From IMG/VR virus record IMGVR_UViG_3300021425_000008, positions 77,062-141,061 of that record: 64,000 bases of DNA; one strand, written 5' to 3'. Position 1 is the first letter of the stretch. Every line of letters begins with the position of its first letter. The notes below the pieces were generated by a model. That model ran no database searches and was not told where the DNA came from. It saw nothing but the letters and a program-made list of their open reading frames with translations. Origin of the DNA: a virus. Below are positions 3,001-63,981 of this stretch, in pieces. The position numbers and the translations under genes are program-made.

Positions 3001-6000
3001 AGTGTTGTGGGGGTAACTTCAGATACCTTTGATTATAATATCCCTTATGATAGTGATACTGTTACTTCTTATGGTTCAACCAATTCAACGGTTAAGTATA
3101 ACACCACTTCACCAACTGCATTTGGACCTATTAATAGAGTAACTGCAGTCAATGAAGGAATTGGTTACAAAACTCTGCCTGGATTTACATCTGTAAGAAG
3201 TGCAAAAGGAACTGGTGCATTATTAGAGCCAAGAAGTACAACAATTGGTTCGGTTCTCAAACAGAAGATAAACTATATTGGATTTGGTTTCCCATCCGAC
3301 AATACTCTGAACATTGTTGCAAATCTTCCACAGGTTCTCAGAGTAGAACCACTTGGTAAATTCGAACAGATCGGTATTTCTTCGGGTGGTGTTAATTATA
3401 GTCAACCTCCACAATTGGTTGTTCTTGACGGTTTAACAGGATTACAAATTACTGACCTTGATCTGAGATTTGACTTTGATCAGACCTTTGTAGATATTGT
3501 TCAGAATACACAATCTCTGAATGATGTTATACCAGAGATTATTCCCGTTCAAAACACTAATGGTTTCAGTATTAGTTCAATCACTTACAACAATACCTCA
3601 AAAGTTGTACGTTTGACTTTCTCTCATCAATTCAGTGATCCTGAAGATTGGCCATTTAAGGTTGGTGAAGAATTCCTCGTAGAAAACGTTGCAATTGGTT
3701 TTGGAACTGTAGGTAAAGGTTACAACTCTGAAGATTATGGATATAAACTCTTCAAGGTGACTTCATTAGATAGTCAACTCGGAGGAAGTGGTGCATTTAT
3801 TGAATATAGTCTTTCAGACGTTCTTGGTACAGGCGAAGTTCCTGGAGCAGTTGTAAGTACTGTATCTGGTACTGTAACTCCTAGAGTATACTTCCCGATC
3901 TTTGATCCTGTCATTAAAACTTCACCTCTGTTGACTGGAGAAAGGGTCACAAATGAAGGAAGAACTGGTATTGTTGAAAGATTTGATGAGGTAAGTAGAT
4001 ATCTCTTCGTTTCTGCTGAAGATGACTTTGTGGTTGGAACAGATGTGGTCTCTGAAACATCTGGTGTAAGAGCAACAATTTTAGACACAACTGTGTTTGA
4101 TTCAACGATCAAACTTGGTGTTGGTGCAACATTTATTGATGGTTGGCAAACAAACTCTGGTTTCTTGAACGATAATCTTCAGGTGATTCCTAATAATGAA
4201 TATTATCAAAACTTCTCATACTCTCTTAAATCGAGAGTTGCTTTAGACACATGGGATGATGCTGTAAGTTCTCTGAACCACACTGCAGGTTTTGAAAAAT
4301 TTGCTGACTTGGTTATTGATAATAATGCACCTGGTATCGTAACAGCAGCAGACATTGAGATTTCAACTGTTGTCGATCTCATTGGTGAGGGAATGCTCAA
4401 CTGTTTCCCTGACTTTGATGGTGCAACTGAAAGAACTTTGGATATTTCGAATGGAAGAACTATCTCCAATGAGATTGTATTTGAAACAAAAGTTCTTGTT
4501 GACTACTTCGAGTCAAGAGGAAATAGAGTTCTTAAAATCGATGACTTTAGTGATGAGTTTGATAGTGATCCAAGAGATACACCTTTCTCAATCATCAGTT
4601 TCTTTGATAACAAGTATGCATGGAATAAGTTCTTTACTCTTATTCAAGATACTGAAATTAGAAATAGAAAACAGTTTGGTATTGTCACCCTCCTTCAAAA
4701 TGGTTCAGATGGTTTCTTGAATCAATACGGTACAGTTGATACAGGTAAAGCACTTGGTTCATTTGAACATATCAGTATTGGTACAAGTCAGTTTGGTCTC
4801 GCATGGTACCCAAATCTCTTCGAATACAACAACTATGAAGTATCTTACTTCAACTTTGCTGGTGTAGAAAGTCTGACAGGAATTGGATCAACTGCAATCG
4901 GTAGTATGGTTTCAATAGCTTCATCTTCTGTCGCTGTTGGTGTTGGTACTACAACCACATTATTAGAACTTCCAACTGCAACTAGATCTGCAAAAGTTCA
5001 CATTCAAATGGAAGATGGTAATGACAACTACTTCTATAATGAACTGAACGTCCTTCATGATGGTACAAATGTACAACTCCTTCAATATGGCGATATTGAT
5101 ACTACCACCGATCCATCTTCAGGGTTTGGAACTTACACTGCAAACATAAGTGGTAGTAATATCGAGATTGACATTCATCCTACCGTAGGAACTGCTGTAA
5201 CGGCAAACATCTTGTCAGTCGAGGTACATGGTACAAACACTGGTGTTGACACCACTGGAATGATCGTGACTAACCTTTCATCATACCATACAAGTATCTC
5301 TTCATCTGGTACACCTACTGCCAATGAGATTGCATCTTTCAATAATCCATTTGCTGCAGAGTACTTCATGGTAACTGTCCATGATACTACGAATGATGAG
5401 TATGAAATGTTTGAGTGTCATGTCTTGGACTCCACTAGTAATCAAAATATTACTAAGTACGGTAGAATTGACACTATCTCTGGTGTAGGACTTGGTACCG
5501 TTGGTATGACCAAGACTGGAAGTTCGATTAGTTTGAACTTCACTCCAAATGCAAACATCGCTGTTGATGTGAAGACATTTGGTATTGGTCTAAAGAACTA
5601 TAACAATATTACGGGTATCACTTCAATCAGTGACCTTCAAAATAATATTCTCTTCTCTAACCATGGTACTTACACAGGTACCCAGTTCGATACAAGAAGA
5701 GCATTTAACCTGAAGCACAATGATCTTCCAATCTTCCAGAGAGCATTCCTTGGAAATAATTCAAGTATTGTAGATCTTACAAATAATTTGATCACCGTTC
5801 CTGATCACTTCTTTGTCACTGGCGAAAAACTCATTTACAGCTATGAGAATTCATTATATGAGTCCACTAATGCAATAGGAATTGTCACACAATCAATCGC
5901 AGGTGTTTCCACTGACAAACTTCCAACAGAAGTCTATGCAGTTAAAGTAAGTGAAACTCAGGTCGGTCTTGCTACTAATGCAGCTGCAGCACTTAAAGGC

Positions 6001-8856
6001 ACTCCTGACACCATTGATCTTTTGACTCTTGGTATTGGAACATTCCACAAGTTGACATCAACCAATCAAAATGCAAGAGCATTGTTGGCTATCGATAATA
6101 TGATTCAGGCTCCAGTCACTGAGGTTGTAGTCTCAACAACTCTGAATGAGGAAATTATATTCGATGTTGACTTTGAAGTCACTGGAATCACATCATTCAA
6201 AGCAAATGATCTGATTAAGATTGACGATGAGATCATGTTGATTCAGAACGTTGGTGTGACTGCAGCAAATAGTTTCAAGGTTCTGAGAGCACAGATGGGT
6301 ACTGGTGTTGGTACTCATGCAAACGGTACCACGGTTCAGAAACTTGGCGGTAACTACAATATTATTGATAACACTGTTCACTTTGCTTCTGCACCTTACG
6401 GAAATATTCCAATCGGAACAGATACTGCAGGTCCTGATAATGTAGATTGGTCAGGTATCACCACTCATTCTACATTCCAAGGTAGAACATTCATGAGAAG
6501 TGGTATTGAAGATGAAACTACAAGTACTTATAGTACCAACTTCACTTTTGATAACATTCAAAAGGATTTCAATGGTCAGAAGAAGGTATTCTCACTTCGT
6601 CAGAATGGAAGTAATATTACTGGATTTGCAACTAACCAAGCAATCATTCTGAACTCTAACATTCTTCAAGAACCACAGGGTGCTCAGGCAACTACTGGTG
6701 ACTTTACTCTAAGTGAAACTGCTGGTGTTACGAGTATTACTTATCTTGGTGAAAGTAGTTCTTCTGAGGATGATCCTAACAGAGCAACTCTTCCAAGAGG
6801 TGGCACTATTATCTCGGTTGCATCAACACCAGGTTTTGGTTTCCAACCTCTGATCTCTGCTGGTGCTTCATGTTTCGTCTCTGGTGGTGGTACAATCACT
6901 TCAATCGAAATTGGTAATCCTGGATCTGGATACAGAGTTGGTGTTCAGACAGTTCAGGTTGGTATCATTACAACTAACGTTGGTTTTGCAACTGTTGTCA
7001 ACATTGGTACTGCAACCGTTCAAAACGGTGAGGTCGTAGCAATTACGACATCTTTCTTCGGATCAAATCTTGATCAGAATAATCCACCACAAGTTGTAAT
7101 TGATGCACCTCTTCCGTATCAAGGTATTCCACTTGTATATGCAGATGGAACGACTGGTATAGGTACTGGTGCTAGGGTTGATGTCAAGGTTGGTCAAGGT
7201 TCAAGTGTAATTAATTTTGAACTTGTAAGTGGTGGTCTTGGTTATGGTGAGAGTGAAGTACTCAGACTTGCCATTGGTGGTACTACAGGTATTCAAACAA
7301 CCTCAAGTGCATCATTTGAACACTTTGAACTTACCGTATCTGATGTTTATCGTGATACCTTCAACGGATTCACAATTGGCGAACTCGACGTATTTGATAG
7401 ACTTGATCCTCTGTTTGATGGGGTCAGAAAGACATTCCCACTTGAAATTGCAGGAAACTTATATGCAATTGAAACTGCTAAAGGTTCAAACATTGACATT
7501 GCACAGTGTCTGATTATCACCATCAATGACATTCTTCAGGTTCCTAATGTAGCATATAAGTTCAATGGTGGTAGTATTATTGAATTTACAGAACCACCTA
7601 AGAAAGGTGATGTATCTAAGATTATCTTCTACAAAGGCACTCCAGATATTGACGTTGTTCTGGTTGATATTCTCGAAACCATCAAGATTGGTGATACCTT
7701 ACAACTGAAGAATGATTCTGGAAAGGGTCAGACATTGGCATTGTTCCAGGAGGAAAGAATTGTCACAGGTATCACAACCCTGGATACTGTCACAACTTTT
7801 GCTTATGATGGTCCTGGTATTACGACAAATCAGTCTCTGGTAAGACCAGTAACATGGTGTAAGCAGATTGACGACATTGTTATTAATGGTTCCTTTGTTA
7901 CAAAGGATAGGGTTGAGTTTGAGCCATCGATCTATCCTTACGGATACATCACTCAATATATTGGTGTGAATACTACTGACGCATATGTCGATAGTGTAAG
8001 ACCATTCTTCAATTCAACAAATGAAACGGCACTTCTTGATTATAACGATAGAGTAACGATCATCGACCAGACACCTATCGTTGGTGCATTAGCAACAGTT
8101 TCTGTCAGTACCGCTGGAACTGTCACTGGTTTTACAATCAGCAATGTTGGTTCTGGTTATTCTGGTTCAGCTGCTGTTTCTATCTCACAACCATTTGACA
8201 TTGTGGGTGGTACAAGAGCAACTGCAACAGCCAACATCTCTGGTGGTGGTGTGACATCATTCACAATCACTAATGCTGGTGCTGGTTATTCAGCTGCTTA
8301 TCCTCCACAAGTTCTAGTTGAAGTCCCTGAAGCAAGAAAAGAAACTGTTGGTGTCAATTCTTACTTCGGAGATCAAGGTATCATTGTTGGTTATGCTCAA
8401 TCTGCTGGTGCTTTGGGAATCCTTGAACTGTATCTTCCATATGATTCGTTCATGAGAGATACCACCATTGTAGGAACAGCTCTTACAGTCAGTACACTCA
8501 GAACTGGTGATCTGTTTGTTGTCAATCTTTCCAACTTCGGATTATCGACGAATACTAGTGATGGTATCTATCGTGCACATTATGTTTATGACCATACGGT
8601 TGATTTGACATCTGTTGGTATCGGAACAACCGTAGTCAAGAGAGTTGAAATTGAAAATGTTGGATTTGGTGTTACTGCAGTTGGAACATTTACAAGAGGT
8701 AAGGATCTGGGTGAATACACCTGGGGTAGAGTTCAATTTAAGAATAGAGTTGCTGCTAAAGCTCTCACATTTACACCAAATGGATATGCTGGATTGACCA
8801 CATCTCCAATCATACAGAGGACCAGACCTCTGAAGTTCAACAACTATCTAGTTTAA
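1..8856 (+). CDS. gp7: Giant baseplate wedge initiator (gp7-like) with YHYH-type domain; 5' end lies outside the window
   Basis: The frame is open from base 1 (CAA CCA ATA...), upstream of the ORF-track start at 130. It has Gly-rich GxGY beta repeats and the segment HSPIFGWAYDGNPIYGPY...DLDEYNGRFCVTPDYPNGVYAYF, and lies upstream of gp8. Confidence 0.8.
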   Translation, partial: QPIFRGSIQTIDTVNGGVGYGASTIIDFNRQPEVTFQSGEGALLTPIINNGQISEVVVLSPGNGYNSPPDLVVRSLDGKGDFAILVPVISNGQIDSVIVQKGGAGYTAGKTSVDVIAAGQGARVQTMIRGWNINLFEKNFNNILDDDCVLTENIANTSLQFASFFAQRPLRAASNSINGFEEDNIKYGLFDLQLTTGGEETSSGFHSPIFGWAYDGNPIYGPYAYDKINGSGSIRRMQSGYKLKNTPVNRPSYTAFRNGFFVDDYEFVGDGDLDEYNGRFCVTPDYPNGVYAYFCTISNDIESSGPFNKYRLPQFPYVIGDKFKSLPNAFNFRSSSNQTEYDITKNNWLRNTRYYFTNGGNNGYDYIFNSDLIRNSSVDITATTSGGIDIVDIKDPGENYKVNDKVIFDSSQTDGRGVNWRVAEIKGKDVTQVSLAKTVFEDSEFVGDASRNAFTGITSVPHDFLTNDIVFVDGLSEFYRGFTGPFRAGVSSERWYTSVGIKTGTVTGIVTFVYLSGIIDEAIIRPNDILRIDREQFKVLNLDVASGRVRVERGYNSSPQTTHTAGTLVRDDPRKIRFSAPGISTFKPLNLNKTHYFMPNESVGLGTATAGTATTITFSNPGVGITQLRLQQQQFYYPDHGLELNTPLKYYKGGGTSLAVWSGIQSSSIFNLDETRDLFAVPITQDIIGLASDRVALSTVTNQYVGVDSTKGGLLYYTNSTNLGQTHSLVTVLPTVLTGRISQNVVTVSTGETHGMKRGDRILVDVNPTTTTTVKVLYDDYNRRIVFDRDTIEPSGINTSNNSFTVPINKYRTGDKVIYTSGDPSEGLNANEMYYVYVYKDDVIKLTDEVYQLFSENPTFVNVGSATTGSIARINPRIEVQKNQDLKFDLSDPSLSFVDKTITYSAFEMHLYSDSQKINEFFTTKTNSKFEVTTSGQIGIDSTANLTLSISNELPESLYYGFEPDNLDIIPPVKLRIFEDDQVFKHNTIGVVPNKFDGVYSVVGVTSDTFDYNIPYDSDTVTSYGSTNSTVKYNTTSPTAFGPINRVTAVNEGIGYKTLPGFTSVRSAKGTGALLEPRSTTIGSVLKQKINYIGFGFPSDNTLNIVANLPQVLRVEPLGKFEQIGISSGGVNYSQPPQLVVLDGLTGLQITDLDLRFDFDQTFVDIVQNTQSLNDVIPEIIPVQNTNGFSISSITYNNTSKVVRLTFSHQFSDPEDWPFKVGEEFLVENVAIGFGTVGKGYNSEDYGYKLFKVTSLDSQLGGSGAFIEYSLSDVLGTGEVPGAVVSTVSGTVTPRVYFPIFDPVIKTSPLLTGERVTNEGRTGIVERFDEVSRYLFVSAEDDFVVGTDVVSETSGVRATILDTTVFDSTIKLGVGATFIDGWQTNSGFLNDNLQVIPNNEYYQNFSYSLKSRVALDTWDDAVSSLNHTAGFEKFADLVIDNNAPGIVTAADIEISTVVDLIGEGMLNCFPDFDGATERTLDISNGRTISNEIVFETKVLVDYFESRGNRVLKIDDFSDEFDSDPRDTPFSIISFFDNKYAWNKFFTLIQDTEIRNRKQFGIVTLLQNGSDGFLNQYGTVDTGKALGSFEHISIGTSQFGLAWYPNLFEYNNYEVSYFNFAGVESLTGIGSTAIGSMVSIASSSVAVGVGTTTTLLELPTATRSAKVHIQMEDGNDNYFYNELNVLHDGTNVQLLQYGDIDTTTDPSSGFGTYTANISGSNIEIDIHPTVGTAVTANILSVEVHGTNTGVDTTGMIVTNLSSYHTSISSSGTPTANEIASFNNPFAAEYFMVTVHDTTNDEYEMFECHVLDSTSNQNITKYGRIDTISGVGLGTVGMTKTGSSISLNFTPNANIAVDVKTFGIGLKNYNNITGITSISDLQNNILFSNHGTYTGTQFDTRRAFNLKHNDLPIFQRAFLGNNSSIVDLTNNLITVPDHFFVTGEKLIYSYENSLYESTNAIGIVTQSIAGVSTDKLPTEVYAVKVSETQVGLATNAAAALKGTPDTIDLLTLGIGTFHKLTSTNQNARALLAIDNMIQAPVTEVVVSTTLNEEIIFDVDFEVTGITSFKANDLIKIDDEIMLIQNVGVTAANSFKVLRAQMGTGVGTHANGTTVQKLGGNYNIIDNTVHFASAPYGNIPIGTDTAGPDNVDWSGITTHSTFQGRTFMRSGIEDETTSTYSTNFTFDNIQKDFNGQKKVFSLRQNGSNITGFATNQAIILNSNILQEPQGAQATTGDFTLSETAGVTSITYLGESSSSEDDPNRATLPRGGTIISVASTPGFGFQPLISAGASCFVSGGGTITSIEIGNPGSGYRVGVQTVQVGIITTNVGFATVVNIGTATVQNGEVVAITTSFFGSNLDQNNPPQVVIDAPLPYQGIPLVYADGTTGIGTGARVDVKVGQGSSVINFELVSGGLGYGESEVLRLAIGGTTGIQTTSSASFEHFELTVSDVYRDTFNGFTIGELDVFDRLDPLFDGVRKTFPLEIAGNLYAIETAKGSNIDIAQCLIITINDILQVPNVAYKFNGGSIIEFTEPPKKGDVSKIIFYKGTPDIDVVLVDILETIKIGDTLQLKNDSGKGQTLALFQEERIVTGITTLDTVTTFAYDGPGITTNQSLVRPVTWCKQIDDIVINGSFVTKDRVEFEPSIYPYGYITQYIGVNTTDAYVDSVRPFFNSTNETALLDYNDRVTIIDQTPIVGALATVSVSTAGTVTGFTISNVGSGYSGSAAVSISQPFDIVGGTRATATANISGGGVTSFTITNAGAGYSAAYPPQVLVEVPEARKETVGVNSYFGDQGIIVGYAQSAGALGILELYLPYDSFMRDTTIVGTALTVSTLRTGDLFVVNLSNFGLSTNTSDGIYRAHYVYDHTVDLTSVGIGTTVVKRVEIENVGFGVTAVGTFTRGKDLGEYTWGRVQFKNRVAAKALTFTPNGYAGLTTSPIIQRTRPLKFNNYLV

Positions 8857-59247: not shown

Positions 59248-59474
59248 TTAAACTAGAATTAGATGTAAGACAAGCAGCATCCATTCGTCAGGTGCTATAT
59301 AAAGAACAGAGTATTTACACATACGATCCTAAATGTGTTCCTCCACGTATCGTTGACATTCGTGAAGTCATCGGTTCATTGGATACTCAGATCGAGGCTG
59401 AACTCGAAGAAGCTGCAAAAAAAATTCAAAAGCTTGAGGAGGAAGCAGCACCAGACTACGGAGTTGGGAAGTGA
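59244..59474 (+). CDS. Hypothetical protein
   Basis: GTGA overlaps at both ends; AGGAGG SD. Confidence 0.7.
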   Translation: MIKLELDVRQAASIRQVLYKEQSIYTYDPKCVPPRIVDIREVIGSLDTQIEAELEEAAKKIQKLEEEAAPDYGVGK

Positions 59475-59911
59475 AACAGGTACACATCTGTCAATTATTT
59501 GATGATGGTATCTGGGAGGATAGAGCTGAAGACTGGCGTATAAAACCAGATTGTGATTCTGTTCTTTTTCTTAAGTACATTGAGGAATATCTAGTTCCCG
59601 AAATATTACAAACTATTTGTTTTGACAAAGTAATTCATACGTCTGAAATTTTGTATCCTGATTTGTCATTGGATAACTGTATTTGTTGTAATGGAGTTAA
59701 ACATAAGTTGTGTAACATCAATAAACCAGTCATTGTTGTTCACAACATGCCTAACCCATACAACAAAGAATACAAACTTATTGACGGAAAACACAGATTC
59801 AATAAAATGCGTAGTATGGGGATGACAGAATCCAAGATGTACGTCCTTGAGTTTGAAGAGATTAAACATCTATTCAAAGACATTAATCACAATAAGTATA
59901 TTAAAAAATGA
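59471..59911 (+). CDS. ParB/sulfiredoxin-like domain protein
   Basis: PVIVV...YKLIDGKHR signature. Confidence 0.7.
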   Translation: MKQVHICQLFDDGIWEDRAEDWRIKPDCDSVLFLKYIEEYLVPEILQTICFDKVIHTSEILYPDLSLDNCICCNGVKHKLCNINKPVIVVHNMPNPYNKEYKLIDGKHRFNKMRSMGMTESKMYVLEFEEIKHLFKDINHNKYIKK

Positions 59912-60603
59912 CATACGACTTTTCTTTCGCACATTCACCAGAAGGATTCGATAATCACATCGACAAATCTATTCGGGGGTACTCAAACCTTCTCGATGAC
60001 ACTGTATCGTTCTCTCGATACTTCGTAGAAGATCATACCAAAGTCGTTGATGTGGGTTGTTCTACTGGTAAACTGACCAAGATGATCCTTGCCAATAATC
60101 AGTCTCGTAAACAAACTCAATATGTAGGTGTTGAACTTGCTGGTGGGTTCTATGATGACTTGGATGAGAGATACAAAGAGATCCGTAAAGACTACCCTTG
60201 GGCGATTCTGGATTTTGTTCGTGGTAATGTCACCAACTATGAGTTCAAAAACTGTTCTCTGGTGACATCATTGTTCACTCTTCAGTTCATGCCAAAGACT
60301 ACTCGTCAAGATACAATCAATAAAATTTATGAGGGTCTGAATGAAGGTGGGGCATTCATCTTTGCAGAGAAGTTGATGTGTGAGAATGCGTTCTTTCAAG
60401 AACTACTGACATTCAACCACTATGACTATAAAAGAAAATCATTCACTGCAGATGAGATCATGGACAAGGAGAAAGAACTACGTGATATGTTGAAACCAAA
60501 TACTTGGGAAGAACTCAAGTCTATGATATGGTGTGCTGGGTTCAGAGACTGTCAGATCTTCTGGAGAAACCATCAGTTCGTTGGAGTTATTGCTATCAAA
60601 TAA
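59908..60603 (+). CDS. cmoA: CmoA-like carboxy-S-adenosylmethionine synthase
   Basis: GYSN, DVGCSTG, FTLQF, KIYEGLNEGGAFIFAEK and HYDYKR match CmoA family motifs in order along the whole length. Confidence 0.85.
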   Translation: MTYDFSFAHSPEGFDNHIDKSIRGYSNLLDDTVSFSRYFVEDHTKVVDVGCSTGKLTKMILANNQSRKQTQYVGVELAGGFYDDLDERYKEIRKDYPWAILDFVRGNVTNYEFKNCSLVTSLFTLQFMPKTTRQDTINKIYEGLNEGGAFIFAEKLMCENAFFQELLTFNHYDYKRKSFTADEIMDKEKELRDMLKPNTWEELKSMIWCAGFRDCQIFWRNHQFVGVIAIK

Positions 60604-60648
60604 ACTGGCACAAGGGACCTAGACAGGTCCCTTTTTTTATTGTATACT
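60603..60648 (+). promoter_or_regulatory. Combined terminator and early-type promoter (copy 3 of the element)
   Basis: AACTGGCAC; AAGGGACCT/AGGTCCCTT hairpin plus T tract; TAGACA-N17-TATACT. Confidence 0.75.
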
Positions 60649-60707
60649 TTGATTGGACGAGAGCAATGGTGCCAGTGTCCATTAAAAGGTCATAGGAGGC
60701 CAAATAA

Positions 60708-62054
60708 ATGTTATACACTAAACAAACCCCAACCATTCGTGAATTTCGTGACACGATGTATCACAAAACAGAATGTCAACCAGTAGGACAACGACTTCCT
60801 GTTTATTCAAAAGACAATGCAAAAAGCATTGGAATTATTACAACCCTCTTAGATGGATATGATATCGGAACGATTACAGTAATGAAACTGAATCGTCAAC
60901 AAAAACGTGCTGCTGCAAAAGTAAAGTTTGAATTTGAAAGTATTGATGGTGGTCACCGTAAGCGCTCTTTGTATTCATATCTACAAGACGATTTCATGGT
61001 TCGTGGGAAATATTTCTCACAACTTTCAGAAAAAGAACAAGATGCATTTCTAGACACTGAACTTTCATTCACTGTTTACAACGCACTTGATTCTGCAACA
61101 AAAGGACACATCTTTCGCACACTGAATAAAACAACAGATGTGAATTTCATTGAGATGCTTAACTCATATGGAGACATTTCAGTTGCAAACTTTATTCGTG
61201 AAACAGTTCGTACTGTCAAACAGATTGACAATGAATGCAATACTCTTTTTGAATTCACCTTGAATGCAAAAAGTGAGCCAAACTACACATACCTTTCCTT
61301 TGACAACGACCGTCTGAAACAAGACCATGCGTTTGCTCGTATTGCACATCGTTATATTCAACATCCAAAACAGTTGCTTGGTGGTTCGTCTGATACTGAA
61401 CTTGAAGCAATGTATGAAGATTCAGAATTGACAATGAAAGATATTCCAGTTGCGAAAATCAAAGCACACCTAGATTTCTTACGCAAAGTTGCAATGTATC
61501 GAAAGCAACAGTTCAAAACTGGACTTACACAGCATGACTTCAAAGCACTTTCATACCTTTACTTCTATCTTTCAGATACCTATGGTACATTTACCATTCC
61601 TGATGCAGAAGAATTTTTCAAGGCATATGCTCGTGCAAACTCATCACTAATGAATAAGGATGGAGACTATGCCGAGGTTATTCACGAACCTTCTGGTTAT
61701 AGTGTACAGGTGATGTACAAGAAGTATATTGCTGCTCCTTGGGATGGTAAAAAGATTTCTACTGCAATATCTTATCTTGTTGGAGAAATGGGTGATATTG
61801 AAGATATCATTGAAACACGAGACAACAACCGTTCTTTCACTGTAAACGAGAAGGAGGCAAAACTTGCCGAACAGAATTTTGTTTGTGCAGTCGATGGAAA
61901 AAAACTTGAGTGGGATGATGCACATGCTGCTCACATCACTGCACACGCAAATGGTGGACGTACTAAGTATAGTAACCTTGCAATGGTTCGTGCCTGTTAT
62001 AATAAAGAAATGGGTACAATAGACTTGAACGAATACAAAAAATTGTGTGTATGA
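60708..62054 (+). CDS. DUF262 plus C-terminal HNH protein (GmrSD/SspE-like nuclease)
   Basis: DUF262 motifs QR, IDGGHR and FRTLN; C-terminal HITAHANGGRT..SNL.....YN HNH-like segment; AGGAGG SD. Confidence 0.75.
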   Translation: MLYTKQTPTIREFRDTMYHKTECQPVGQRLPVYSKDNAKSIGIITTLLDGYDIGTITVMKLNRQQKRAAAKVKFEFESIDGGHRKRSLYSYLQDDFMVRGKYFSQLSEKEQDAFLDTELSFTVYNALDSATKGHIFRTLNKTTDVNFIEMLNSYGDISVANFIRETVRTVKQIDNECNTLFEFTLNAKSEPNYTYLSFDNDRLKQDHAFARIAHRYIQHPKQLLGGSSDTELEAMYEDSELTMKDIPVAKIKAHLDFLRKVAMYRKQQFKTGLTQHDFKALSYLYFYLSDTYGTFTIPDAEEFFKAYARANSSLMNKDGDYAEVIHEPSGYSVQVMYKKYIAAPWDGKKISTAISYLVGEMGDIEDIIETRDNNRSFTVNEKEAKLAEQNFVCAVDGKKLEWDDAHAAHITAHANGGRTKYSNLAMVRACYNKEMGTIDLNEYKKLCV

Positions 62055-62866
62055 TTGACATTATCCTCAGTGATATCATCTCTCAAGAAGTCCCTACAGA
62101 TGATGTGGGGATTTTGTTGTCTGGTGGTGTAGATAGTTTAAGTCTAGGGTTTGCAGCAGACCGTGCAGGTAAAAGAGTTGATGCATATACTTTTCATCTT
62201 GAAGGTGATAAGTCATATGATGCTTTGAAAGCAGAAGAAGTATCCTCTAAGTTTGGGTGGAACTGTAAGACCATTGTTGTCCCTAAAGATAATCTTGCTC
62301 AAGACTTTCTCCGTCTTGTGAAAGACTACGATTGTAGAAAGAAGACACACTTTGAGTGTACGTTTCCTTTCCTCTATGTCTTCCCTGAAATCACAAACAA
62401 GTACTTACTGAGTGGGATTGGTGCAGACGGATATTATGGTGTAAGTAAGAAAGCAATCCTTCACTTCAAAACACCAAAAGAAAAGTTCGATCAATTTAGA
62501 CGTAACTACTTCATGCCACATAATGTGACAGGATTTCGACAGATTGAACAACTGTGTAATGAAAGGGATATCAAACTCATCCACCCATATATCTACCATG
62601 ACGATGTAAAAAGTTTCTTCTTTCAATATGATTGGTTCGAACTAAACAAGCCAAAACAAAAACAGATTGTAAGAGATGCATTTGCTGATGAGTTTGGTCG
62701 TATCAAAGCGGTAAAGGATCATATCAATCTGCAACTTGGTTCAAATATTGATCACTTGTTTGAAACACTCTTAGATGATAAGATGCTAAATAATCGTGGT
62801 AGGAAGAGGGTCATGGATCTCGCCTCTGACTACGCATCATCTGGACAAGGAACACTTCCATTATGA
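62051..62866 (+). CDS. Asparagine-synthetase-like ATP-dependent amide ligase (synthetase domain only)
   Basis: LLSGGVDS PP-loop, LSGIGADGYYG, PY and KQIVRDAF; no N-terminal Cys/Ntn glutaminase domain. Confidence 0.8.
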   Translation: MIDIILSDIISQEVPTDDVGILLSGGVDSLSLGFAADRAGKRVDAYTFHLEGDKSYDALKAEEVSSKFGWNCKTIVVPKDNLAQDFLRLVKDYDCRKKTHFECTFPFLYVFPEITNKYLLSGIGADGYYGVSKKAILHFKTPKEKFDQFRRNYFMPHNVTGFRQIEQLCNERDIKLIHPYIYHDDVKSFFFQYDWFELNKPKQKQIVRDAFADEFGRIKAVKDHINLQLGSNIDHLFETLLDDKMLNNRGRKRVMDLASDYASSGQGTLPL

Positions 62867-63981
62867 AACTGCCATATAAATTACAAGACGTTTATGACGG
62901 TGAGGCTCAATCAAAGTTCACCGTGATCTCTACCTTTGCTGGTGGTGGAGGATCCTCTACAGGATATCGACTCGCAGGTGCGAAGATTTTGTGTATCAAT
63001 GAGTTCGTGGAAGAAGCTAGAAAGACATATGCTGCAAACTATCCATCAACACCGATTGTCCCTGATGACATCAAACAACTAACGGGTGGTGACTTTCTTA
63101 AGATCACAGGATTGAAACCAGGAGAACTTGATATTCTTGATGGATCACCACCATGTTCTGCATTCTCTGTTGCAGGATCTATGTGTCGTGGTGAGGGATC
63201 TAAACACTCTGATGGATGGGGTAAGACAAAGAACTATTCTGATGGTAAGAAAGTAGAAAACATCGAAGATTTGTTCTTTGAATTTATTCGTGTTGCCGAA
63301 GGTATTCAACCAAAAGTTATTGTTGCTGAGAACGTCAAAGGATTGACAATTGGTGAGGCAAAGACTTATTATGCAAAGATTACCAATGCCTTTGAGGATC
63401 TTGGTTATCTCGTCACATCAAAAGTGATGAAGTCATCTCACTACGGTGTAGGTCAGGCAAGAGAACGACTCATCTTTATCGCGGTTCGTCAAGACATCGC
63501 AGATAAGATTGGTTTGAATGTACTTACAGTATCTTCACTCTTCCCTCCCACGTCATCTAAAGATACAACCATCGGTGATATTATTGATGGAGTTGAACAA
63601 GATCCTGAGTACATTCAGGGTCTTGTCGATCATATGACAAAGAGTGGTATCTACAAAAAAGTTGTGAGTAAGATGCCAAAGGATCCTAAAAAGATTCTAT
63701 CTGGCATGGACTACCACGAGAAAGGTCATTGTTTCAATACGAAGAGGGCATCATTCTATAAACCCTCTCCGACCTTGACAGCAAGTGGTGGTCTGATACA
63801 CTGGAAGGAAGACAGAGTTCTTTCTGTTCCAGAACTTAAGCGCATTCAATCTCTCCCTGACGACTTCATTCTTACTGGCTCTCACTCACAACAAACTGAA
63901 AGAGTTGGTAGAATGGTACCTCCCCTCATGATGAAGGCAATCGCCGAAAACATTTACAAAGAAGTTCTATCTAAATTATGA
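62863..63981 (+). CDS. C5-cytosine DNA methyltransferase-fold enzyme, predicted carboxymethyltransferase
   Basis: Motif I FAGGGG, motif IV GSPPC (C98), motif VI ENV, motif VIII QARER, motif IX RIQSLPD, and motif X variant VGRMVPP. Confidence 0.9.
   Translation: MKLPYKLQDVYDGEAQSKFTVISTFAGGGGSSTGYRLAGAKILCINEFVEEARKTYAANYPSTPIVPDDIKQLTGGDFLKITGLKPGELDILDGSPPCSAFSVAGSMCRGEGSKHSDGWGKTKNYSDGKKVENIEDLFFEFIRVAEGIQPKVIVAENVKGLTIGEAKTYYAKITNAFEDLGYLVTSKVMKSSHYGVGQARERLIFIAVRQDIADKIGLNVLTVSSLFPPTSSKDTTIGDIIDGVEQDPEYIQGLVDHMTKSGIYKKVVSKMPKDPKKILSGMDYHEKGHCFNTKRASFYKPSPTLTASGGLIHWKEDRVLSVPELKRIQSLPDDFILTGSHSQQTERVGRMVPPLMMKAIAENIYKEVLSKL

Follow-up and report, generated by a model that had tools for sequence, protein, structure and literature searches.

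The window analysed here, 64,000 nucleotides at the 3' end of an IMG/VR viral contig of 141 kb (IMGVR_UViG_3300021425_000008, positions 77,062 to 141,061; estimated completeness about 68%), contains a gene that we read, with a probability of about 0.9, as cmoA of the published CmoA-CmoX-CmoY pathway, encoding a synthase of carboxy-S-adenosyl-L-methionine (carboxy-SAM). In its product the arginine that holds the cofactor carboxylate in Escherichia coli CmoA, Arg199, is replaced by glutamate and the glutamate four residues further on by arginine, and the same reading takes this charge swap to mark one of three layouts, all ancient, within the CmoA family. The window gene and its pathway are already known. 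The new part is that the missing Arg199 marks an alternative pocket which extends across the family and includes its best-characterised phage enzyme.

The open reading frame (ORF) is intact and encodes 231 residues. The protein matches the CmoA models TIGR00740 (E 8.5e-34, 117.3 bits) and PRK15451 (101 bits), without reaching the equivalog cut-off of the former (193.3) or the cut-off of the latter (285), and it also matches the generic class I methyltransferase models Methyltransf_11/12/25. Searches against the CmoA/YecO crystal structures 4GEK, 4IWN and 1IM8 gave E values from 2e-27 (4GEK) to 1e-23. We then modelled the protein with AlphaFold2, using a 131-sequence alignment as input (predicted local distance difference test, pLDDT, 96.6; predicted template modelling score, pTM, 0.93). 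The model presents the class I core, the CmoA-specific N-terminal cap and the C-terminal helices, and the six best Foldseek matches in the Protein Data Bank (PDB) are all CmoA/YecO chains, with template modelling (TM) scores of 0.85-0.89 (0.86-0.89 for 4IWN and 4GEK). Thus, the claim of the original prediction that the gene encodes a full-length CmoA homologue is borne out by profiles, crystal structures and fold, the last by the structure prediction that it had proposed as a check.

Compared with E. coli CmoA (4GEK, 4IWN) and Haemophilus influenzae YecO (1IM8), the window protein has the same fold (root-mean-square deviation about 2.1-2.6 Å) at about 28% identity. The residues that bind SAM or are invariant in the family are present (Tyr25, Asp48, Gly50, Ser52, Phe127, Glu154, Lys155, Lys175 and Lys187), and those common to both enzymes are, in E. 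coli numbering, Tyr39, Asp62, Gly64, Ser66, Phe137, Glu164, Lys165, Lys185 and Lys198. The differences, in contrast, are Arg199 to Glu, Glu203 to Arg, Met31 to His and Asn132 to Leu; furthermore, Glu76 stands in place of Asp89, and Asp117 is replaced by Asn107, a change shared with Synechococcus phages S-B05 and S-B43.

Direct evidence of function comes from phage S-B43, whose CmoA-CmoX-CmoY system was described by Yang et al. (Nat Commun 17:281, December 2025; PMC12783734). The S-B43 synthase, SpCmoA (UniProt A0A514ABH6), is 94% identical to the window protein over 231 residues, with 14 substitutions, none of which falls in the thirteen-residue segment that carries the swap. In vitro, SpCmoA converts SAM and prephenate into carboxy-SAM with a kcat of 2.33 per s, as compared to 0.23 per s for E. 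coli CmoA (PMC12783734). The original prediction was to be abandoned if no carboxy-SAM were formed; this experiment has in effect been run on the S-B43 orthologue, where carboxy-SAM is formed, and the prediction is not refuted.

These data also bear on whether the window protein has given up carboxy-SAM chemistry and works as an ordinary SAM-dependent methyltransferase, as the missing Arg199, the score below the CmoA equivalog cut-off and the matches to Methyltransf_11/12/25 could suggest. We regard this as very improbable, since carboxy-SAM is made by the S-B43 enzyme, which is 94% identical and shares the segment, the neighbouring CmoX takes carboxy-SAM only and not SAM, and every invariant CmoA-family residue is present. 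If SpCmoA scores alike, a bias of the TIGR00740 model towards the E. coli-like layout, rather than a loss of function, would explain the low score.

The partners of the gene assign it to DNA. In S-B43, SpCmoX is a C5-methyltransferase homologue with Arg350 for the motif X Asn (crystal structure 8YF3) that refuses SAM, accepts carboxy-SAM only and carboxymethylates cytosine at C5 in GC sites; SpCmoY is an Asn-synthase-like ligase that adds glycine, and 5-glycylcarboxymethylcytosine (5gcxmC) was found in virion DNA by liquid chromatography-mass spectrometry and nanopore sequencing (PMC12783734). The window CmoX matches 8YF3 over residues 1-372 (E 1e-245, about 97% identity) and PF00145 (E 1.3e-52), and has both the SPPC catalytic motif and Arg350. 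The window CmoY (start 62045/62051) is 94% identical to SpCmoY over 271 amino acids (aa), matches PF00733 (E 2.5e-13) with the GATase domain absent, and is distinct from the 465-aa GATase-bearing ligase of many sister loci. The three genes stand in S-B43 in the order found in the window, behind replication genes and MazG. Among 80 related IMG/VR loci, cmoX lies 3' of cmoA, directly or past one or two genes, in all that reach far enough, and C5-methyltransferase homologues are likewise neighbours of the CmoAs of Staphylococcus phages, of PaBG and of metagenomic siphovirus-like contigs. No match to CmoB (TIGR00452) was detected in the 141-kb contig, at its estimated completeness, and no tRNA gene in the window.

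Because of the cmoX and cmoY partners, the lack of a CmoB match and the conserved cmoA-cmoX linkage, the window cmoA is, by analogy with S-B43, the cofactor-supplying step of a DNA hypermodification whose predicted product is DNA 5gcxmC. Where the partner is CmoB acting on tRNA in E. coli, at the window locus it is CmoX acting on DNA. In this scheme CmoA would use SAM and host prephenate to make carboxy-SAM, CmoX would place the carboxymethyl group on cytosine C5 at GC sites of the phage DNA, and CmoY would ligate glycine to give 5gcxmC, which would shield the phage DNA from restriction. A role of the window CmoA in tRNA modification is ruled out by the absence of CmoB and of tRNA genes in the regions searched and by a carboxy-SAM-only DNA transferase two genes downstream. 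The earlier observation that the phage has no tRNA-modification partner therefore holds for CmoB in the contig and tRNA in the window, but it had missed the DNA partner, CmoX.

The supply of substrate was assessed in the picocyanobacterial family, reached via a Prochlorococcus genome; only part of the family was sampled, with many incomplete genomes, and the survey covers the family rather than the phage's true host. A CmoA-like gene at E 1e-15 or better is present in four of the 101 genomes sampled, none of them above the curated cut-off, while an AroH-type chorismate mutase, the source of prephenate, is present in 37 of 41. CmoB was not detectable in the two whole Prochlorococcus-family genomes searched, and neither type of chorismate mutase was found in the phage contig. 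The phage would thus carry its own synthase because most sampled hosts lack CmoA yet make prephenate. This agrees with the proposal of the original prediction that the phage supplies its own cofactor by drawing on host prephenate, for which it had suggested checking host genomes, and with the activity of SpCmoA. The CmoA-like genes of the Prochlorococcus family (our loci L116, L117, L122 and L177-L180) have the layout that we call b below. Recent capture of a host cmoA is ruled out, as the picocyanobacterial genes are 31-36% identical to the window gene and of layout b.

According to published work, Arg199 of E. coli CmoA forms a 2.7 Å salt bridge to the cofactor carboxylate (Byrne et al. 2013, PMC3663124) and is the sole, bidentate contact to the carboxylate of carboxy-SAM (Kim et al. 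2015, PMC4482062). The comparison with E. coli that the original prediction had made is correct, since both reports give Arg199 as the carboxylate contact. Arg199 corresponds to Arg213 in 4GEK, which has a 14-residue tag offset, and we checked the numbering on the K-12 gene. In an ungapped HMMER alignment to 4GEK and in MAFFT alignments, Arg199 aligns with Glu188 of the window protein and Glu203 with Arg192, so that the change of R to E and, four residues on, of E to R is confirmed at its exact location. Conserved anchors on both sides (Ile195, Lys198 and Leu202) make the register secure; an alignment artefact is ruled out by these anchors, by the ungapped alignment and by the agreement of three aligners. 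Nor is the swap due to chance, because it is kept across the 121 close homologues (at least 59% identity), 120 of which have Glu and one Asp at position 199, while all 121 have Arg at position 203. The Arg199 salt bridge is lacking in the window CmoA as well as in SpCmoA, which is active without it; therefore, Arg199 does not define the whole CmoA family. The missing Arg199 is not discussed in the paper by Yang et al. (PMC12783734) or in those of its supplements that were searched, and our literature search found no other paper that addresses it.

We next compared the family at large, in E. coli numbering, where three layouts can be distinguished. Layout a (Met31/Arg199/Glu203) is found in E. 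coli, Campylobacterota, Nitrospinota and the PaBG and Erwinia phages. Layout b (His31, Ser, Thr or Ala at 199, Arg200, and Lys, sometimes Ala, at 203) was found in a bacterial genome scan in cyanobacteria, Bacteroidota, Pelagibacterales and others. Layout c (His31/Glu or Gln199/Arg203) comprises the window, S-B43, most phage contigs and some contigs of bacterial metagenome-assembled genomes (MAGs) that also carry cmoX. In the 140 window-like proteins scored, about 94% combine Glu or Gln199 with Arg or Lys203 and none has Arg at 199. Arg199 is absent even from a set of 133 proteins, each representing a 50%-identity cluster and some as distant as 31% identity, of which about 90% carry Arg or Lys at 203. 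The set gathered with the PaBG phage CmoA shows the opposite pattern: all 119 members have Glu at 203, and at 199 there are 93 with Arg, 11 with Lys, 13 with Ala and two with Ser.

A maximum-likelihood tree of both sets, with columns 199 and 203 masked, recovers the same division. One clade holds the Glu203 proteins (121 of 121, support 0.91), and the other all 131 Arg/Lys203 proteins together with nine that lack a basic residue there (support 0.94). In concordance with the tree, position 31 follows position 203 without exception in the layout sample (His in all members of b and c, Met in all of a) and closely in the larger sets (His 98% versus Met 99%). Lys198 is invariant in every layout, and all three layouts are found next to users of carboxy-SAM. 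The nine members without a basic residue at 203 include P0187 (L092:2920-3657), have for instance Ala199/Gln203, and may have drifted to another function; P0187 itself lies in an ordinary bacterial context, with an FMN-binding protein and a pantoate transferase.

The layout-b bacterial CmoAs, like the window's, have His31, a basic residue at 203 and no Arg199, but they combine Ser, Thr or Ala199 with Arg200 and Lys203 rather than Glu199 with Arg203, are about 30-36% identical to it and are chromosomal. At least two copies adjoin a CmoB gene, and where CmoB is adjacent tRNA modification is probable. These CmoA-CmoB pairs without Arg199 (L135 with L176, in a Thermosynechococcaceae MAG, and L126) have Thr or Ala199, Arg200, Lys203 and His31, and the CmoB of the L135/L176 pair scores 460 bits, over the curated cut-off; therefore, Arg199 is not universal even among CmoAs of the tRNA pathway. 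The CmoAs of the PaBG and Erwinia Alexandravirus type, on the other hand, are phage-encoded like the window's but have Met31/Arg199/Glu203, fall in the other deep clade and are about 28-31% identical to it. In PaBG and related metagenomic contigs, cmoA adjoins genes for a C5-methyltransferase homologue, a ParB-like protein and an Asn-synthase-like protein.

Judged from these alignments, the charge swap is usual throughout a deep CmoA branch and no peculiarity of the window phage, and on the same counts the conserved Arg199 of Byrne et al. holds only for layout a. The rearranged active site put forward in the original prediction thus stands at the level of the residues but not as a phage peculiarity, and the residue that would now hold the carboxylate is a matter of the proposal made below.

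Genes of layout c also occur in proteobacterial MAG chromosomes (L100, L101, L102, L104, L105 and L167), where they are 40-42% identical to the window's. These genes lie on large chromosomal contigs with no CmoX, CmoY or CmoB nearby, and directly 3' of each stands a class I methyltransferase of about 164 aa, 69-97% identical among the loci (e.g. L104:5001-5669 and 5714-6208); in some there is an MFS transporter upstream. Such pairs of a cmoA-like and a small methyltransferase gene may represent an undescribed carboxy-SAM-dependent pathway.

How the carboxylate might be held without Arg199 can be approached from the predicted helix 181-192, on which Glu188 and Arg192 would lie one turn apart on the same face. 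We propose that Arg192 (position 203) would fold back along the helix over Glu188, bringing its guanidinium near the site of E. coli Arg199 and into contact with the carboxylate, and that the Glu or Gln found at 199, either of which can hydrogen-bond to Arg, would orient it. Kim et al. 2015 (PMC4482062) attribute the low activity of E. coli CmoA to a product that is bound very tightly, and because of this we propose a looser product grip in the phage enzyme: Arg192, partly neutralised by Glu188, would grip the product less, ease its release and so contribute to the approximately tenfold higher turnover of SpCmoA. In the full form of this proposal, the family would have two incompatible pockets, Met31/Arg199/Glu203 and His31/x199/Arg or Lys203, and the displaced arginine, tempered by Glu or Gln199, would loosen carboxy-SAM, relieve the product inhibition reported for E. 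coli CmoA and explain the tenfold turnover. We hold this form tentatively and consider it rather doubtful. No structure of layout b or c was present in the PDB copy searched.

A different residue, namely Lys189, the invariant Lys187 or His17, could hold the carboxylate, with Arg192 and Glu188 forming a helix-stabilising ion pair or binding prephenate. Layout b, with Arg200 and only Lys or sometimes Ala at 203, points in this direction, as do the Lys or Arg found at position 200 in 84 of the 121 close homologues, the invariance of His31 in the scored members of layouts b and c and that of Lys198 in all layouts. Arg203 is, however, better kept (121 of 121 close homologues, 95% overall) than a basic residue at 200, where Ile or Val also occur, and residues i and i+4 share a helix face, which makes 203 the natural substitute for 199. 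We consider another holder rather unlikely.

The swap could also be a neutral, frozen reversal of a salt bridge that keeps the guanidinium where it was without affecting kinetics, the higher kcat of the phage enzyme arising elsewhere. The two layouts are both represented in phage DNA-modification clusters; the ancient split between them traces to one deep branch, as expected of a frozen accident; and the branches differ further at several positions (31, 67, 133 and 190). On the other hand, the strict conservation of both partners and their perfect co-variation with position 31 suggest a constrained network rather than drift, and E. coli CmoA is reportedly limited by tight product binding through Arg199 alone, so that a change of this contact is a plausible lever. 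We give the neutral swap a substantial chance, though one well short of even.

Several points weigh against our interpretation, from the identity of the gene to the proposed pocket. The window protein does not reach the TIGR00740 equivalog cut-off, and carboxy-SAM synthesis was assayed on the S-B43 protein, 14 residues apart from it. Besides Arg192, there are other conserved basic candidates for the carboxylate, namely Lys187 (E. coli 198), Lys189 (200), Lys175, Arg133 and His17. The difference in kcat between SpCmoA and E. coli CmoA may have other causes. Finally, the PaBG-type phage CmoAs keep Arg199 and Glu203, yet are linked to DNA methyltransferase homologues; therefore, the swap is not required for DNA modification.

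The contig belongs with T4-like cyanomyoviruses, its nearest isolates being Synechococcus phages S-B05, S-B43, RB11-B and RN05-S, with about 89% nucleotide identity to these four in the replication block. The genes of the cluster, from 59471 to 63981, are all encoded on the + strand (Table 1).

Table 1 Features of the cmoA locus, with positions in the window and the evidence for each.
Feature	Position	Strand	Evidence or remark
146-aa ParB-like protein, DGxHR motif	59471..59911	+	phrog_35149; blastn gap vs S-B05
cmoA, carboxy-SAM synthase, 231 aa	59908..60603	+	TIGR00740; PDB 4GEK; SpCmoA 94%; AlphaFold2 model
His17 (E. coli Met31)	59956..59958	+	co-varies with position 203
Swap helix segment, residues 183-195	60454..60492	+	HMMER and MAFFT alignments; overlaps predicted helix 181-192
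Glu188 (E. coli Arg199)	60469-60471	+	alignment
Arg192 (E. coli Glu203)	60481-60483	+	alignment
Inserted cassette between cmoA and cmoY	60602..62054	+	blastn gap 60602-62050 vs S-B05
Terminator-like hairpin	60612-60633		9-bp stem, inside cassette
Promoter-like site	60620-60648		inside cassette
448-aa ORF, N-terminal DGGHR and C-terminal HNH motif	60708-62054	+	weak HNH, PtuB and restriction endonuclease (REase) matches
cmoY, ATP-dependent glycine ligase on DNA 5-carboxymethylcytosine	62051..62866	+	PF00733; SpCmoY 94%
cmoX, DNA cytosine C5-carboxymethyltransferase, 372 aa	62863..63981	+	PDB 8YF3; PF00145; SPPC; Arg350

Compared with S-B43 and S-B05, two extra genes flank the window cmoA, the ParB-like one upstream and the 448-aa one downstream. 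The first coincides with a blastn gap against S-B05 at 59475-59904; its product has a DGKHR motif and matches phrog_35149 at E 1.8e-20, and its stop overlaps the cmoA start (ATGA overlap). It is missing from this site in S-B05 and S-B43, and homologues (31-38% identity) lie elsewhere in other cyanophages, some of them annotated as 'chromosome segregation protein'. Many CmoX contigs carry ParB-domain genes of unknown role (PMC12783734).

The downstream cassette is absent from S-B05, S-B43 and S-CRM01. Its ORF has a ParB/DUF262-like N-terminal region, gave one weak partial match (a Vibrio phage) among 50,697 phage records, and was found in one of the 80 related IMG/VR loci (L047, 75% identity). 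The cassette has the look of a free-standing mobile nuclease gene.

The content of the slot between cmoA and cmoX is modular among close relatives (L010-L089), in which the slot holds the glycine-ligase cmoY, a 465-aa GATase and Asn-synthase ligase, nothing, or extra ParB-like ORFs (e.g. L012:5696-7093, L011:1102-2106 and L029:7090-9326). The 465-aa ligase, with a predicted amide product, occupies the slot in most loci, and in another form cmoY is preceded by a 334-aa ORF that carries a DGTHR motif. A tandem pair of cmoX paralogues, with 69% and 92% identity to that of the window, is found in L029, L030 and L037. The cmoA of L010 is 100% identical to the window's, and its spacing to cmoX is 1397 bases, as in the GATase-ligase loci; judged by spacing alone, its slot probably holds the GATase-type ligase, which would mean an exchange of cassettes.

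The main value of these findings lies in the correct annotation of the gene, as the cofactor step of a restriction-blocking DNA hypermodification (5gcxmC) and not as a tRNA enzyme; a validated branch of the family escapes the curated CmoA model. For enzymology, much of the family, the best-performing carboxy-SAM synthase known included, lacks Arg199 and has an arginine one helical turn away, an alternative pocket that gives a testable link to product release. Carboxy-SAM is in use as a reagent for DNA methylation sequencing and bio-orthogonal labelling, and because of this it would be of practical use to know which pocket layout releases the product fast. If the family does have two pockets and the phage one grips its product more loosely, this would offer a simple design rule for high-output carboxy-SAM synthases, and many CmoA-like genes that score below the cut-off would be true synthases, including the chromosomal pairs that may feed unknown carboxymethylation pathways.

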